A DNA stretch of 61,019 bases, taken from assembly GCA_049600935.1 (NCBI GenBank), contig JBMYQB010000006.1, forward strand, positions 1 to 61,019, written 5' to 3'. Origin of the DNA: Poseidonia sp. GTDB taxonomy: Archaea > Thermoplasmatota > Poseidoniia > Poseidoniales > Poseidoniaceae. The translations under genes and the position numbers were made by a program. Under the pieces are notes generated by a model. The model did no database searches. It worked only from the letters and a program-made list of their open reading frames with translations, and was not told where the DNA came from. Each line of letters opens with the position of its first letter. The stretch's first letter is position 1. Shown in pieces: positions 3,715-8,762 of this stretch.

Positions 3715-4395
3715 ATGGTCTTCAAGCCAATCCAGCGCCTCCACCTCGGTGCAGAAGCCGAGGTTTGGAAGGGTGAATGGTTTGGTAAGCCAGCCGTGCG
3801 CAAACAACGCCGACCCCGTTCTTGGCGACACCCGAACCTTGACCATCGCCTTGGCGTTCGCCGAATGATCAGCGAAGCCCGCCTCTTGATCCGCACTCGA
3901 AAAGCAGGACTTTCCGTCCCATCTGTATGGGATTTGGATTACGAGGGTGGCCAACTCATCATCGAACATTTGGGCGGCAGACCGCTTATCGACGTGCTCA
4001 ATGACGAGGCCACCACCTCCACCACCGCCCAAGCCATCCTCCGACGCGTTGGCGCTGCCGTGCGGCGACTCCACCGAGAAGCAACCACCCACGGGGATCT
4101 TTCCAGCAACAACATCCTCATCGAGGGGGAACTGGTTCACCTCATCGATTTCGGACTGGCCTCCATCGAATACGACGTCGAGCGGTTCGGCATTGACCTG
4201 CACGTGCTGGATGAAATTCTCGGAGCCTCTCACCCACAATGGGAGGGCGCCATCGATTGGGTGGTGGACGGCTACATGGAGGCTGAAGAGGCGCTCGGTC
4301 CCGCACCGGCACTCCAAGGCGGTGCTGTACCGTCGGCTCGGGAAGTGCATGCTCGGCTTGAAGACATCCGCACCCGAGTTCGCTATCACGGTTGA
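3715..4395 (+). CDS. bud32: KEOPS complex kinase Bud32 (standalone)
   Basis: GAEA P-loop, AVRK, HGDLSSNNIL, IDFGL. GGTGA RBS before ATG 3715. Confidence 0.9.
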   Translation: MVFKPIQRLHLGAEAEVWKGEWFGKPAVRKQRRPRSWRHPNLDHRLGVRRMISEARLLIRTRKAGLSVPSVWDLDYEGGQLIIEHLGGRPLIDVLNDEATTSTTAQAILRRVGAAVRRLHREATTHGDLSSNNILIEGELVHLIDFGLASIEYDVERFGIDLHVLDEILGASHPQWEGAIDWVVDGYMEAEEALGPAPALQGGAVPSAREVHARLEDIRTRVRYHG

Positions 4396-6491
4396 CGCTG
4401 CATGCGACGTTCACTTTGGCGCTGCCACATGTTCCAAGCAACCACCACAAAGGCGGCCAGCACACCGATCTGGAGAACGATGCTGGAATAGAACCGGAGT
4501 TCGGGCTCCCAAGAATGAATTTCTACCGAAACCACATCCTCGTCCATCTCAAAATACACCAAATGGTGTTCCAAGACTTGAGGGCCCCACTGGTCCTTGG
4601 TGTCCGATGTCAACACGTGGGAGGTGTTGGTTTCCAATTCCGTGAAGTAGATTTCACGGTCGAGATACTTCTCTTGGGGGCTCAGTGGATTGAGGTGGTC
4701 TCGAACCGACCATGCCAAAATGCCGTGGTCAAGCGAAAGGTCCGAGACGTGATATTTCGGATTGCTTGCAAGCCACTGCTCAGCCGTTGTTCTGTTGTAG
4801 AGCACCAAGCGGTCGGTGGCCGAGACGTTGACCGTCACGGCCAAGTATTCACGATTGAACGCCATGGTTTGGATGCTGGCGTTGTCCATGTCAACCGGCG
4901 TCCCCCACGACGCAAGAAGGTCGTCCTCCTCGACCGGAGCGGTGGCGTTGATGGTGTAGCCGACTTCTCCACGAACACCCAACTGGAGGATGTTCACTTC
5001 CATGGGGTTTAATGAGGAGACGTAGGCGATTTCGGAGCCAGAACAGGTCATGGACCGGATGTTTCCAGGTTGCTCTTCGCCAAGCACCGAGACGCCCTGT
5101 AAATTCATCACGTCCAGGACACCGTCAACGGTGTAGGCAACGACGGCAGAGCCTGCTTGTTCACAGAGTAACAATTGTTCGTGAGTTGAAAAGGGCATGG
5201 TCATCAAGGCCGTTGTTGGGTCTTCAACGTCAAAAACGAACAAGGCGGTTGCGTTGGTGGCGACCAACCGGTCCTCCTTCAGAGCATAACTCGAATCAAG
5301 AGAGACATCTGGAATGTTCACCATTACCGAGGCAAAGTCTTCGGATGACAAATCATGGAGCATCATGTAGACGGCATCGCTCTGATTGTCCAGTGTCACC
5401 AACCAACCATCTGCAGCCGCCGCTGCTTCGGGCGCCTCCACGCCCCCTGCTGGTAGAGAGCGGTGAGTGAGGTCCCAGGTGATTACCGCCGCCACGACGA
5501 CCAAAATCACTACGGCGATATGACCCGTCTCTCGGCTTGTTGGTGAACGGTATTGCTTGAACAGCCTCACCGTACGACCACGAATCCACGCCCAAGCCTG
5601 GCCTGGTCGAGTAAGCACGGTCACAATCCGAGCGTTCATCGTGCGTTCGTCAAAGAATTTCCACCACGTGTTGGATGTCCGGTCGGCCATTGAAACGGCT
5701 GCGCCGGCAATGAGCATCCCCCCGATAATGTCCACAAACCAGTGGATACCGAGGTAGATGATGGTGAACGCCGTGAGCAAGGTGTAGGCAAACACGGTGT
5801 ACCGATACCGATTCCAACGTCGGTCGTCGTCGAACCGCGTGAGGCACAGCCACACAGCAAAGGGGATGCCGATGTGGAGGGAGGGCATGCCGTTGGTGAA
5901 CGGGTCAATCCGGCGGAACCAATCAGCGATTTCCGGCGTGAGGGTGTAAGCAAGCGTTTCCATTTCGGGGATGGTATCGCCCGTCACTCGAACGTTGAAG
6001 AAGAGGTAAAACGGTACGGCGAGAATGTAGACCCAAGCGATGGAGAGGGTGACTCGGTCAGCGAGCCAACGGTCATCGAAATAGGCAAAATAAAACACGG
6101 AAACATAGCAAATGAACATGAAACCTGCCACGTAGAAATGGGTCAGGGCCGTGGTCAACCAATCCGCCTCAAACGTTTGCTGAACCCACAGCACCAAATT
6201 TCCTTCAATCGCCCAAATGTACGGCGTCATGTCGAGGCCGGTGCTGGCCATGAGCAAACGATCGATCTGGTCAAGGCTGTCTTTGGCGTTGTAGATGGCG
6301 AAGACGATGAGAATGTGAACCCAGTAGCGTCGAAAAAAGTCAACAAAAGGTGGGAGTGACAACTTCGCCCACGGTGGTTTGAACACCGGAAGTAGGATGA
6401 CGCCCAAGGCGAGGGCGCTGATCATCCAAGTCAGATAGACGCTCTGCACGGCAACGCACTCCGGTTCTGTGTCATGCCTTTCCTTCATCAA
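4386..6491 (-). CDS. Aur1/IPC-synthase-like (PAP2 superfamily) membrane enzyme fused to a putative beta-propeller and C-terminal TM helix
   Basis: N-terminal multi-TM domain with FTNGMPSLHIG and YLGIHWFVDIIGG. C-terminal region of about 300 aa with repeated beta-rich blades and a terminal TM helix. Confidence 0.75.
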   Translation of the reverse strand: MMKERHDTEPECVAVQSVYLTWMISALALGVILLPVFKPPWAKLSLPPFVDFFRRYWVHILIVFAIYNAKDSLDQIDRLLMASTGLDMTPYIWAIEGNLVLWVQQTFEADWLTTALTHFYVAGFMFICYVSVFYFAYFDDRWLADRVTLSIAWVYILAVPFYLFFNVRVTGDTIPEMETLAYTLTPEIADWFRRIDPFTNGMPSLHIGIPFAVWLCLTRFDDDRRWNRYRYTVFAYTLLTAFTIIYLGIHWFVDIIGGMLIAGAAVSMADRTSNTWWKFFDERTMNARIVTVLTRPGQAWAWIRGRTVRLFKQYRSPTSRETGHIAVVILVVVAAVITWDLTHRSLPAGGVEAPEAAAAADGWLVTLDNQSDAVYMMLHDLSSEDFASVMVNIPDVSLDSSYALKEDRLVATNATALFVFDVEDPTTALMTMPFSTHEQLLLCEQAGSAVVAYTVDGVLDVMNLQGVSVLGEEQPGNIRSMTCSGSEIAYVSSLNPMEVNILQLGVRGEVGYTINATAPVEEDDLLASWGTPVDMDNASIQTMAFNREYLAVTVNVSATDRLVLYNRTTAEQWLASNPKYHVSDLSLDHGILAWSVRDHLNPLSPQEKYLDREIYFTELETNTSHVLTSDTKDQWGPQVLEHHLVYFEMDEDVVSVEIHSWEPELRFYSSIVLQIGVLAAFVVVAWNMWQRQSERRMQRQP

Positions 6492-6527: not shown

Positions 6528-6881
6528 CTACCATGCACCGTGAACGTAGGGTTTTCCTCGGTCAGGATCCCGTCGATTGGCCAGGTCAAAGATACGTTCG
6601 AAACGATAAATTCCACTTGAACACCCCTGCTGCCATTCGAAGGCCAAGGCGTACTTGCCAACGGTTCTCACCGTCGGTTTTTCTGCTGGCAAGGCCTCAA
6701 CCTGACGACGAAGGGTCCGACTGGTGTCGTCTTCGTTTCGCATGGGTGAACACTTCGCACACGGACAAGCATGGCGGAGGTCATCGTAGGAGACGGTATA
6801 TTCGGAGGCGTCGTCGTAGGTGAGCACCATGTCTTGCTGACGGCGTTCCAGTTTCTTGAGGGTGGGCAGGACGTCGCTCAT
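6528..6881 (-). CDS. DUF971 / GBBH-N-like protein
   Basis: LRHACPCAKC, VRTVGKYALAFEW, SSGIYRF match the DUF971 pattern. Lies 9 bp after mrp. Confidence 0.85.
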   Translation of the reverse strand: MSDVLPTLKKLERRQQDMVLTYDDASEYTVSYDDLRHACPCAKCSPMRNEDDTSRTLRRQVEALPAEKPTVRTVGKYALAFEWQQGCSSGIYRFERIFDLANRRDPDRGKPYVHGAW

Positions 6882-6890
6882 CGGACCACC

Positions 6891-7901
6891 TCAGATAATT
6901 TCGAGACCACCATCGGCGCCGTCCGAGAGTTGGTCTTGAATCGCAGCGACCACCTTGGAAAAGGCCTGAGCAGAGGGGCCGTCAGGTTCCGAAACGATGC
7001 GGTGAACACCATCATCGCCACCTCGGACAAAGCCCGGGTCAAACGGGAGCGCCCCAAGGAAGGGTACACCAAATTCCTCGGCCGTGTCTTTTCCTCCACC
7101 CTCCTTGAAGATGTCAAGGGTCACGGAGAACTTTCCTTCGCCATCGGCCTTCGCCGTGAGCGTTTTTCCACCGGGGGCGGCGATGCTGACCTCCGTGCCT
7201 GGTGCCGCTGTTCCGTTGACGGTGAAACCGCTCATGTTCTCGACCACACCCAAAACGGGTACTTTCAGCGATTCCGAGAAGGTGATGGATTTCCGGCTAT
7301 CGAGCAACGCAACTTGTTGCGGTGTCGTCACGATGACCATGCCGTCGATATCGGGAAGGGATTGGGCCACCGTTAGCGGTTCGTCCGAGGTGCCCGGGGG
7401 GAAATCGATGATGAGGTAGTCCAGCTCACCCCATTCCACATCACCAATGAACTGCTGAATGGCACCGAGTTTGATGGGGCCACGCCATACGACAGGCGTG
7501 TCTTCGTCCTCAAGCAAGAACGCCATGCTGATGACCTTCACGCCCAGATGGCCCTGAGCGGGGTGAATGCGCTTGTTTTCGACGTGAAGGCGTCGACCGT
7601 CGAGGCCCATCATCTTGGGGACGTTCGGCCCGGTGATGTCAATGTCGAGAATGCCCACGGCATGACCCTGTTGGGCAAGCGAGAGAGCGAGGCCCGTTGA
7701 AACGGTGGATTTGCCCACGCCGCCCTTGCCAGAAAGGACCATGATCTTGTGTTTGATTTTCCGGCCAATTTCCTCCATGGCCATTTTCCGCTTCATTTGA
7801 GCATAGGCCTGTTCCATCTGCTTCTGTTCCTGAGGAGATGGGCCCGCGGGAGCATCGTTTGAGCCACCGGGCGTGTTGATGGATACGGGAGAATCCGCCA
7901 T
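6891..7901 (-). CDS. mrp: Mrp/ApbC/NBP35-family P-loop ATPase, atypical (no Cys)
   Basis: SGKGGVGKST deviant Walker A, DIDITGPNVP, VVWRGP, DYLIIDFPPGTSD, VTTPQ, VVENMS. Confidence 0.93.
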   Translation of the reverse strand: MADSPVSINTPGGSNDAPAGPSPQEQKQMEQAYAQMKRKMAMEEIGRKIKHKIMVLSGKGGVGKSTVSTGLALSLAQQGHAVGILDIDITGPNVPKMMGLDGRRLHVENKRIHPAQGHLGVKVISMAFLLEDEDTPVVWRGPIKLGAIQQFIGDVEWGELDYLIIDFPPGTSDEPLTVAQSLPDIDGMVIVTTPQQVALLDSRKSITFSESLKVPVLGVVENMSGFTVNGTAAPGTEVSIAAPGGKTLTAKADGEGKFSVTLDIFKEGGGKDTAEEFGVPFLGALPFDPGFVRGGDDGVHRIVSEPDGPSAQAFSKVVAAIQDQLSDGADGGLEII

Positions 7902-7964: not shown

Positions 7965-8306
7965 TCATGAAGCCAATTTGCGGTCCAACACCCCGTGAAC
8001 CATCACGGTCAAGCCGACAATGGCCACCGTATGGGGGGCCGACCACGCCATGCCGCCGTACGCCCACGCCAATCCGAAAGCGAGCGGGAATGCGACGAGG
8101 GTTGATGCACGATTTGTTTGCCGTCGCTTCGCCCTGCTCACCGGGCGTTCAAGCACGACCACCAGCGGGCCAAACGTGAGGACTTGGAGGCTAATGAGCA
8201 CAGCAACAATGGAGAACGCCAGTTCCATGCCTCCCGCCGCAAAGGCCACGTGCAAGGCGAACAGAACGGTGAAGCCGACGAGGTTGAGGCTCAGACCACG
8301 CCACAC
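7965..8306 (-). CDS. Small hypothetical membrane protein (about 4 TM)
   Basis: 113-aa ORF dominated by hydrophobic helices, filling the gap between mrp and arsC. GTG start. Confidence 0.6.
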   Translation of the reverse strand: MWRGLSLNLVGFTVLFALHVAFAAGGMELAFSIVAVLISLQVLTFGPLVVVLERPVSRAKRRQTNRASTLVAFPLAFGLAWAYGGMAWSAPHTVAIVGLTVMVHGVLDRKLAS

Positions 8307-8390: not shown

Positions 8391-8762
8391 ATGAAGGTCC
8401 TCTTCGTTTGTGTTGGCAATTCTTGCAGGTCCCAAATGGCCGAAGGGTTGGCGTCCTCAATGGGACTGGAAGCAGCATCGGCTGGAACTCATCCGGCTGA
8501 CTGCGTGGCAGAGCACGCCATCACGCTGCTTCAATCAAAAGGCATCTCCACCGAAGGGATGACGCCCAAAAGCTTGGACGAATTTGACCCAACTACGTTT
8601 GACAAAGTCATTTCGATGGGGTGTGGGGTGCACTGTCCGGCCATCAAGATTGACGAAGACTGGGGCCTTGAGGACCCTGTCGGGCATGATTTTGAGGTCT
8701 ACGAACGAACCGCTGAAGAAATTCAACGACGCCTCCGTCTGCTCGTTGATCAGTCGTCTTGA
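8391..8762 (+). CDS. arsC: LMW-PTP-family arsenate reductase / low-molecular-weight phosphatase
   Basis: CVGNSCRSQMAEG (CX5R loop), SAGT, MGCGVHCP, DWGLEDP. Confidence 0.85.
   Translation: MKVLFVCVGNSCRSQMAEGLASSMGLEAASAGTHPADCVAEHAITLLQSKGISTEGMTPKSLDEFDPTTFDKVISMGCGVHCPAIKIDEDWGLEDPVGHDFEVYERTAEEIQRRLRLLVDQSS

Follow-up and report, generated by a model that had tools for sequence, protein, structure and literature searches.

The window analysed here is the whole 61,019-nt stretch of contig JBMYQB010000006.1 from Poseidonia sp. (GenBank assembly GCA_049600935.1). It harbors a Mrp/NBP35-family P-loop ATPase without any Cys, directly followed by a small DUF971 protein with four Cys. The pair is tentatively interpreted, with a probability of roughly 0.45, as a two-protein counterpart of HCF101 (a DUF59-Mrp-DUF971 polypeptide) for iron-sulfur (Fe-S) maturation, in which Mrp would provide ATP-driven docking and release and DUF971 a metal-stabilised adaptor. 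The features concerned are the following:

6891..7901, minus strand: Mrp/NBP35-family P-loop ATPase, 336 aa, zero Cys (open reading frame and PF10609)
7704..7733, minus strand: deviant Walker A motif SGKGGVGKST, residues 57-66, intact (from the sequence)
7104..7229, minus strand: immunoglobulin (Ig)-like beta insert of ~40 residues (~225-266), which takes the place of the CxxC loop and lies between ENMS and FKEGGG
6882..6893, minus strand: junction, Mrp TGA stop plus 9-nt spacer, GGTGGTCCG; TGAGGTG resembles a Shine-Dalgarno site for DUF971
6528..6881, minus strand: standalone DUF971 protein (PF06155, GBBH-like_N), 117 aa with four Cys, encoded once in the genome
6750..6767, minus strand: CPCAKC (Cys39, Cys41, Cys44), the CxCxxC metal-site motif of DUF971
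6621..6623, minus strand: Cys87, fourth ligand position, His to Cys relative to the DGHxxG of other DUF971 proteins (from alignment)

Loss of the cluster ligands from Mrp

The original prediction described the Mrp as Cys-free, with ENMSGFTVNG in place of ENMSxxxCPxC and without an N-terminal ferredoxin-like motif, and all three descriptions were confirmed. The open reading frame displayed zero Cys and, over the 336 aa read, no CxxC. Downstream of the ENMS strand, where the family leads one to expect CxxC, the protein reads GFTVNGTAAPGTEVSIAAPGGKTLTAKADGEGKFSVTLDIFKEGGG (GFTVNG...); a ferredoxin-like motif was absent from the N-terminus because the first 47 residues contain no Cys. According to PMC6345978, Mrp/NBP35 proteins are marked by two signatures, CXXC and the deviant Walker A motif, of which CXXC is essential in vivo. 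SGKGGVGKST was invariant in alignments of Mrp homologues, and the Mrp signature WGELDYLIIDFPPGTSDE was intact in the window protein.

The absence of Cys was by itself only mildly unusual: long open reading frames of the window averaged 1.08 % Cys, which gives a probability of ~0.026 for none in 336 aa, and one further frame of at least 250 aa was likewise Cys-free. The loss owes its significance to being conserved and to the missing family signature.

Membership of the Mrp family was indicated by a PF10609 score (NUBPL/ParA-type P-loop) of 303 bits (cut-off 27.1), the match being split into two stretches by the insert. The best NCBIfam match was MrpORP (NF041136), with 323.8 bits and thus below the equivalog cut-off of 450; ApbC (NF008669) scored 201.7 bits and also missed its cut-off of 348. 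An AlphaFold2 model from a 51-sequence alignment was Mrp-like, with a mean predicted local distance difference test score (pLDDT) of 75.8, and its best Foldseek matches were Archaeoglobus fulgidus AF2382, Cfd1, ApbC and Thermococcus HypB of the ATPase type, in part as complexes with HypA. An ATPase that lacks the defining feature of the carrier family might have left Fe-S trafficking for another ATP-dependent task of Mrp/MinD-type proteins (metal insertion, as for HypB, or the positioning or assembly of complexes), with DUF971 as a zinc-finger-like partner. Such a switch would fit the scores under both equivalog cut-offs, the HypB/HypA complexes among the closest folds and the order-conserved flanks of the gene, which are a low-molecular-weight (LMW) phosphatase and a PAP2-propeller protein and include no Fe-S genes. 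It is nevertheless quite improbable, as the PF10609 score, the preference for MrpORP within NCBIfam and the nearest relatives, which are CxxC-bearing carriers, all point to the carrier family; moreover, the known links of DUF971 all lead to Fe-S maintenance or to Mrp, and the only Mrp of relatives from the same class is an HCF101-like fusion.

A second, canonical Mrp performing the function, which the original prediction had named as an outcome that would speak against it, was not found. This Mrp was the only PF10609 match above cut-off in the window's genome (85 % complete); three other matches scored 23 bits, below cut-off, and covered only the first 41-61 profile positions. Among 121 genomes of the order, 117 displayed exactly one full-length Mrp match and four displayed none.

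A beta insert in place of the CxxC loop

The insert replacing the CxxC loop gave weak matches to Big_6 and Ca_tandemer and was predicted by AlphaFold2 to form four beta strands (pLDDT 81-93). Together with the preceding strand it shared 40-44 % identity with the repeat unit of protein P0169 (6084 aa), following the pattern TVSGTAEPGSTVTI..PDG..TA.AD.SGNYS. P0169 is a giant Cys-free protein, of which 34 repeats matched Mrp residues ~205-269. The resemblance suggests that the insert arose from a Big-type adhesin repeat or became similar to one by convergence. It was found in 20 out of 20 sampled Poseidoniales genera. In canonical members of the family two CxxC loops oppose each other across the dimer and the cluster is bridged at the interface; because these loops face each other there, the insert should occupy the dimer axis.

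Similar beta inserts were encountered at the same site in P0174 and P0183, which belong to one main clade of the Mrp tree described below, and in the Poseidoniales proteins and P0128, which belong to the other. They share the pattern G-h-x-h-x-G ... D-x-x-G-x-F ... D-h-F. Either such inserts arose repeatedly or the tree misplaces these proteins.

Junction of the two genes

The DUF971 gene had been placed 9 bp past Mrp, and the junction indeed consists of TGA followed by 9 nt. The Mrp stop was TGA in all 51 Poseidoniaceae loci compared, with spacers of 9 nt (41 loci) or 8 nt (six loci) and otherwise of 1, 6, 65 or 76 nt. As the spacer mostly begins with GGTG(A/G) behind the TGA, TGAGGTGA reads as a Shine-Dalgarno site lying over the stop codon. 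On this sequence pattern, we read Mrp and DUF971 as translationally coupled in Poseidoniaceae. Readthrough of the stop codon into an HCF101-like fusion was also considered, DUF971 being in frame in the window, and was rejected in view of the 8-nt spacers of six loci and of a spacer that reads as a Shine-Dalgarno site. Apparent frameshifts were noticed in Mrp at loci L007 (genome G003) and L065 and in DUF971 at L115; they are probably assembly errors, since normal sequence continues in the downstream frame.

The metal site of DUF971

The 117-aa protein scored 58.8 bits against PF06155 (cut-off 22.8) and also displayed sequence matches to PDB entries 2L6N and 3LUU. The original prediction of CPCAKC plus a further Cys held, these being Cys39, Cys41, Cys44 and Cys87. 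DUF971 proteins usually display a four-ligand set composed of CxCxxC and the His of DGHxxG. Here the three Cys were kept and Cys87 replaced His: in an alignment with fusion proteins and 3LUU, the GCSSG containing Cys87 paired with the His of DGH(N/D/S)(S/T)G.

CxCxxC was invariant across Poseidoniales and fusion proteins and also occurs in 3LUU. Cys at position 87 was found in 51/51 Poseidoniaceae loci and in 16/16 loci of two further families of the order, here called f2 and f3. Conversely, C.CA.C together with a His in DGH was displayed by 80/80 metagenomic DUF971 loci, a biased sample, as the scan was seeded with DUF971 from outside Poseidoniales and its pattern demanded SDG just upstream of the His site. 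The fourth position is also His in 2L6N, 3LUU and 2L6P. The Shewanella structure 2L6N lacks the Cys motif (LRVYSPSAEVHG). HCF101 of most non-green lineages carries CxCxxC in its DUF971 domain, the motif being absent from HCF101 of Viridiplantae (PMC7980591).

Both proteins display conserved C-terminal tails. That of Mrp (6891-6905) reads LEI(I/V) in Poseidoniaceae and hydrophobic-x-I-x in the other families; that of DUF971 (6528-6542) reads DPDxGxPYVHG(A/P)W in Poseidoniaceae (family f1) and f2 and is absent from f3. These tails may be docking peptides.

Distribution and gene order in Poseidoniales

Close homologues of the Mrp bear Poseidonia or Poseidoniaceae names, i.e. they belong to Marine Group II. 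No Cys was present in 113 of 120 such homologues, and 20 loci from 20 other genera displayed no CxxC (0/20), the insert (20/20) and only sporadic single Cys. PF06155 was matched exactly once in 120 of the 121 genomes of the order. The exception, G038, was the only genome without DUF971 and also the only sampled Poseidoniaceae genome without Mrp, a double absence to be expected if both genes lay on the same missing contig.

In Poseidoniaceae, DUF971 followed Mrp directly in six out of six other genera and in 53 out of 53 species-level loci with sufficient upstream sequence, among species whose Mrp identity to the window copy falls to ~72 %. In f2 and f3 the two genes were unlinked, and DUF971 was found directly upstream of pus10, followed by rpl21e, rpoF (Rpb4-like) and DUF655. 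This is a housekeeping cluster, and no Fe-S clue was found in the neighbourhood of DUF971 in these two families. In several f2 and f3 genomes DUF971 was located downstream of a transporter of ~970 aa of the MMPL/RND type. The original prediction proposed to test whether Cys loss in Mrp goes with an adjacent Cys-bearing DUF971 across the order: co-occurrence holds in essentially every genome, and adjacency is confined to Poseidoniaceae.

The neighbours of the pair in the window were:

8391-8762, plus strand: LMW phosphotyrosine phosphatase, divergent
7965-8306, minus strand: 113-aa membrane protein without Pfam match, just upstream of Mrp, found in Poseidoniaceae only
4386-6491, minus strand: 701-aa PAP2 and propeller-like membrane protein

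The frame formed by the LMW phosphatase, Mrp and the PAP2-propeller protein was common to f1 and f3, with DUF971 lying between Mrp and PAP2 only in f1. Since DUF971 of f2 combines the f1 tail with the f3 position beside pus10, the placement next to Mrp looks like a derived state, judging from few characters. We are inclined to regard DUF971 as a secondary recruit of the Mrp operon rather than as the product of an in-place fission of a fusion.

A Mrp-DUF971 pair of the Poseidoniaceae type, 95 % and 89 % identical to the two window proteins, was also encountered on a contig labelled Verrucomicrobiales bacterium (NZEQ01000019.1, locus L078), probably from a mis-binned or mislabelled metagenome-assembled genome (MAG).

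Relatives in the phylum

In a sample of 201 genomes from the phylum, PF06155 was present in 35 of 36 Poseidoniales and in only three of ~165 others. All three of the latter were DUF59-Mrp-DUF971 fusions of 469-481 aa, i.e. of HCF101 architecture, carrying ENMSHYxCP(E/D)CGH, CPCAxC and DGHxxG. Two belonged to the class of the window, where the fusion was the only Mrp, and the third to another Thermoplasmatota genome.

A maximum likelihood tree of 77 Mrps displayed two clades (98 in the Shimodaira-Hasegawa-like approximate likelihood ratio test, SH-aLRT), Poseidoniales grouping with short CxxC-bearing forms (e.g. that of Methanothrix) and the fusions falling in the other clade. Constraining Poseidoniales to group with the fusions of their own class cost 50.6 log-likelihood units and was not rejected by the approximately unbiased (AU) test (p = 0.089). 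As the tree separates the clades and the AU test does not reject the constraint, an origin of the pair by in-place fission of a same-class HCF101-like fusion is neither shown nor excluded.

Cys-less Mrp and DUF971 outside the order

The 150 best 50 %-identity Mrp representatives were taken, of which 106 could be scored. CxxC was lacking in 26 and any Cys in eight, so that CxxC-less Mrps are not rare. The contigs of ten representatives without CxxC and of two sisters with CxxC were read. Behind P0179, which has no Cys, a DUF971 gene (CRCAIC, DGH) begins 1 nt past the stop. P0258, also without Cys, lies on a metagenomic contig (ERZ27286469 k141_1139975, locus L122) where DUF59, Mrp and DUF971 are consecutive genes, i.e. 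a fully split HCF101; its CxxC loop is deleted (ENMSGSVFGAGGG), and the start of DUF971, within which the contig ends, overlaps its stop. The separate DUF59 of this locus displays Tyr instead of the usual Cys (TTPAYPVKD). The CxxC-bearing sisters on the tree, P0181 for P0179 (99 SH-aLRT) and P0193 for P0258 (84), had no adjoining DUF971.

DUF971 was not found on the contigs of P0217 and P0230 (no Cys) or of P0244 and P0316 (a single Cys each), within the 428 nt that could be read downstream of P0128 (no Cys, insert present) or near P0183 (insert present). P0271, from bacterial MAG GCA_024228395.1 (L030, 3464-4839), is a DUF59-Mrp protein in which an Ig-like insert of similar kind takes the place of CxxC; its stop overlaps the start of the next gene, which encodes a zinc-ribbon DUF6487 protein of 72 aa (CxxC...CxxC), and the 5.4-Mb genome displayed no PF06155 match. 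DUF6487 could be a different small Cys-bearing partner or a coincidence. Total loss of Cys from Mrp with DUF971 adjoining has thus occurred at least three times, and it has also occurred without DUF971. A common occurrence of Cys-less Mrp without DUF971, which the original prediction regarded as damaging, was found in part: 26 of the 106 representatives lacked CxxC, and several Mrps, including fully Cys-free ones, had no DUF971 nearby.

The converse view was taken from 44 metagenomic DUF971 loci with enough upstream sequence. Seven were fused to Mrp (six with CxxC), three lay 14-17 nt downstream of a Mrp or overlapped it (all with CxxC) and 34 had no Mrp within 2.5 kb. CxxC was hence retained by nine of the ten linked Mrps. 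All six fusions examined outside this metagenome sample kept both CxxC and the Cys3-His site. DUF971 frequently accompanies Mrp regardless of the CxxC state.

The 34 loci without Mrp, like the unlinked genes of f2 and f3 with DUF971 in the pus10-rpl21e-rpoF cluster, would suit proteins that act independently and whose adjacency in Poseidoniaceae is a neutral accident of gene order. This is very improbable. It does not account for adjacency in 53/53 loci with a conserved junction of 8-9 nt while Mrp identity falls to ~72 %, for the fusion or adjacency of Mrp and DUF971 in many unrelated lineages, or for the cofitness of the two families in bacteria. Within the phylum, moreover, DUF971 is almost confined to the class of the window and always occurs fused to Mrp or alongside a Cys-less Mrp.

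A different partnership, along the lines of the original prediction, is conceivable, in which the transferable Fe-S cluster has moved to the four Cys of DUF971 (in one monomer or shared by two) and the Cys-free Mrp dimer serves as its ATP-driven loader and releaser. Mrp cannot offer any thiolate ligand, yet it is conserved as the sole Mrp; the four Cys of DUF971 are invariant in the order and the change from His to Cys coincides with the loss of CxxC from the partner. The pairing also recurs, DUF971 accompanying the Cys-free P0179 and P0258 and not their CxxC-bearing sisters, and in plant HCF101 a CXXC-less Mrp still holds [4Fe-4S] through other Cys. DUF971 is however not generally a substitute ligand set, because the partner of the Cys-free P0179 and the six fusions keep Cys3-His and the fusions keep CxxC as well. 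Further counter-evidence comes from CxxC in nine of ten DUF971-linked metagenomic Mrps, from the Cys-free P0217 and P0230 without DUF971 nearby, from the insert-bearing, CxxC-less P0271 in a genome without PF06155, from DUF971 proteins that lack the Cys motif and still track Mrp genetically, and from the resemblance of CxCxxC plus one ligand to a compact mononuclear site. A cluster on DUF971 is accordingly a real but doubtful possibility.

The supply of ligands in trans by DUF971, as the original prediction has it, is supported only in part: the sole Cys-free Mrp, the order-wide co-occurrence, the coupling and the two further lineages speak for it, and CxxC-less Mrps without DUF971, CxxC-bearing partners and the DUF971 of Shewanella without the Cys motif against it. 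The clients suggested there (NadA, NcsA and SdhB) are conjectural. In its most general form, the idea would make DUF971 a Fe-S-binding module whose Cys3-His or Cys4 site has been mistaken for a zinc site and which, wherever Mrp has lost every Cys (in Poseidoniales and no fewer than two further lineages), is the actual carrier, with Mrp as ATP-driven loader and releaser. This appears rather unlikely. If true, the order-wide change from His to Cys would be a cluster-stabilising adaptation to the oxic, iron-poor surface ocean, and the C-terminal domain of HCF101, so far unexplained, would gain a function.

Proposed role of the pair

The window's genome carries a complete operon sufC-sufB-sufD-sufS-sufE, followed by a 108-aa DUF59/SufT protein with a conserved Cys (contig C12, 1-6603; locus L059). 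A SufA-type carrier is encoded on contig C31, and weak NifU-like matches were also found. Given SufT/DUF59, the SufA-type carrier and these matches, Mrp need not be the only carrier that acts late. The modules of HCF101 (DUF59, Mrp and DUF971) are all three present here as separate genes.

In the favoured two-protein HCF101-like module, SufBCD/SufSE would build the clusters and other carriers (SufA-type, SufT/DUF59) would help to deliver them to apoproteins. Mrp would keep its nucleotide switch, predicted to work from the intact Walker A motif and WGELDYLIIDFPPGTSDE, and would no longer be able to hold [4Fe-4S] bridged between two subunits, as its interface CxxC loop is replaced and no Cys is left. 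Its dimer would use ATP to drive docking and release. DUF971 would be its dedicated partner, a small adaptor stabilised by its own metal site and, owing to the putative translational coupling, produced together with Mrp from the same transcript in Poseidoniaceae. The invariant four Cys would then form a mononuclear structural site of the Zn type rather than a transferable cluster. We infer in this way that Mrp and DUF971 bind each other and participate in the maturation of Fe-S proteins, and likewise the identity of the metal bound by DUF971.

Three observations favour an adaptor over a cluster carrier. The partnership appears independent of the Cys motif, because the Shewanella DUF971 without it is still cofit with Mrp and HCF101 of Viridiplantae also does without it; DUF971 behaves as an accessory and not as a replacement, because it is linked mostly to CxxC-bearing Mrps; and the HypB-HypA complexes among the Foldseek matches provide a structural precedent for a Mrp/MinD-type ATPase with a small metal-binding partner.

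Several points weigh against this explanation. A structural Zn would explain neither the presence of Cys as fourth ligand in all Poseidoniales, against His in 80/80 other loci, nor the position of DUF971 behind three independent Mrps that are fully Cys-free. In f2 and f3 the genes are unlinked. The AlphaFold2 model of a joined Mrp-DUF971 chain, with a mean pLDDT of 48 and a predicted TM-score of 0.46, was uninformative on docking.

Publications on HCF101 and on bacterial fitness screens state explicitly that the function of DUF971 is unknown. Whether in plants, in apicomplexans or in most prokaryotes, the domain is fused to, or accompanies, a Mrp with its own cluster ligands, which makes its contribution difficult to single out. 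In Poseidoniales nature has separated the two: a thiol-free ATPase and a DUF971 bearing the only candidate ligands occur as separate small soluble proteins that are made together. The same arrangement of Cys-free Mrp and DUF971 occurs in at least two other lineages, and the role of CxxC-less Mrp ATPases concerns about one quarter of the sampled Mrp representatives. As Marine Group II archaea are among the most abundant of the surface ocean, their handling of Fe-S clusters under iron scarcity is also of ecological interest.

Comparison with known systems

HCF101 (Arabidopsis chloroplast, Toxoplasma and prokaryotic fusions) combines the same three modules as found in this genome. The background given with the original prediction, namely that HCF101 fuses Mrp to DUF971 and that its plant form lacks CXXC, agrees with the literature; this plant form nonetheless holds [4Fe-4S] via other Cys. 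Non-green HCF101 resembles the window pair by CxCxxC in DUF971 (here CPCAKC), and plant HCF101 by an ATPase domain devoid of CXXC. In contrast to HCF101, the modules are encoded here by three genes and not as one polypeptide, DUF59 being part of the suf operon of a different contig; the ATPase is entirely Cys-free and displays an Ig-like insert, and Cys replaces His as fourth ligand in DUF971. The window Mrp also falls outside the main tree clade of the HCF101 fusions (98 SH-aLRT), a separation to be read with the AU p of 0.089.

Among standalone forms, the DUF971 proteins of Shewanella and Pseudomonas were termed 'FeS cluster maintenance protein' by Price et al. and are cofit with Mrp, BolA and YggX, and Pseudomonas PP_5002 was associated with cobalt sensitivity. 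Bacterial standalone DUF971 proteins such as PP_5002 are, like the one described here, small PF06155 proteins functionally tied to a Mrp/ApbC ATPase. The Shewanella protein (2L6N) differs by lacking the Cys motif, whereas here DUF971 has four Cys and Mrp none. The Mrps of Shewanella and Pseudomonas are presumably CxxC-bearing.

ApbC, Nbp35, Cfd1, Ind1 and MrpORP have the fold, the deviant Walker A motif, the Mrp signature and the ENMS strand in common with the window Mrp, in which, by contrast, the [4Fe-4S]-bridging CXXC is replaced by the beta insert and the scores remain below equivalog level. The ATPase-type HypB of Thermococcus kodakarensis displays the Mrp/MinD fold (TM-score 0.86-0.88 on target) and a separate small metal-binding partner, HypA. 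HypB-HypA inserts nickel into hydrogenase, and HypA has no sequence relation to DUF971, so this is an analogy only, resting on fold similarity. The N-terminal domain of gamma-butyrobetaine hydroxylase, like that of trimethyllysine dioxygenase, belongs to the same PF06155 and displays a site of three Cys and one His; it is part of a eukaryotic enzyme without Mrp partner, in contrast to the standalone protein with four Cys described here. We take the homologous site of gamma-butyrobetaine hydroxylase to be a structural Zn site.

The link between Mrp and DUF971 (HCF101 and the cofitness of Price et al.) and a CXXC-less Mrp (plant HCF101) were thus already known. New are three findings: throughout the order, an Ig-like insert takes the place of the loop in a sole Mrp wholly free of Cys; DUF971 has four Cys; and Cys-free Mrps with DUF971 behind them recur in independent lineages.

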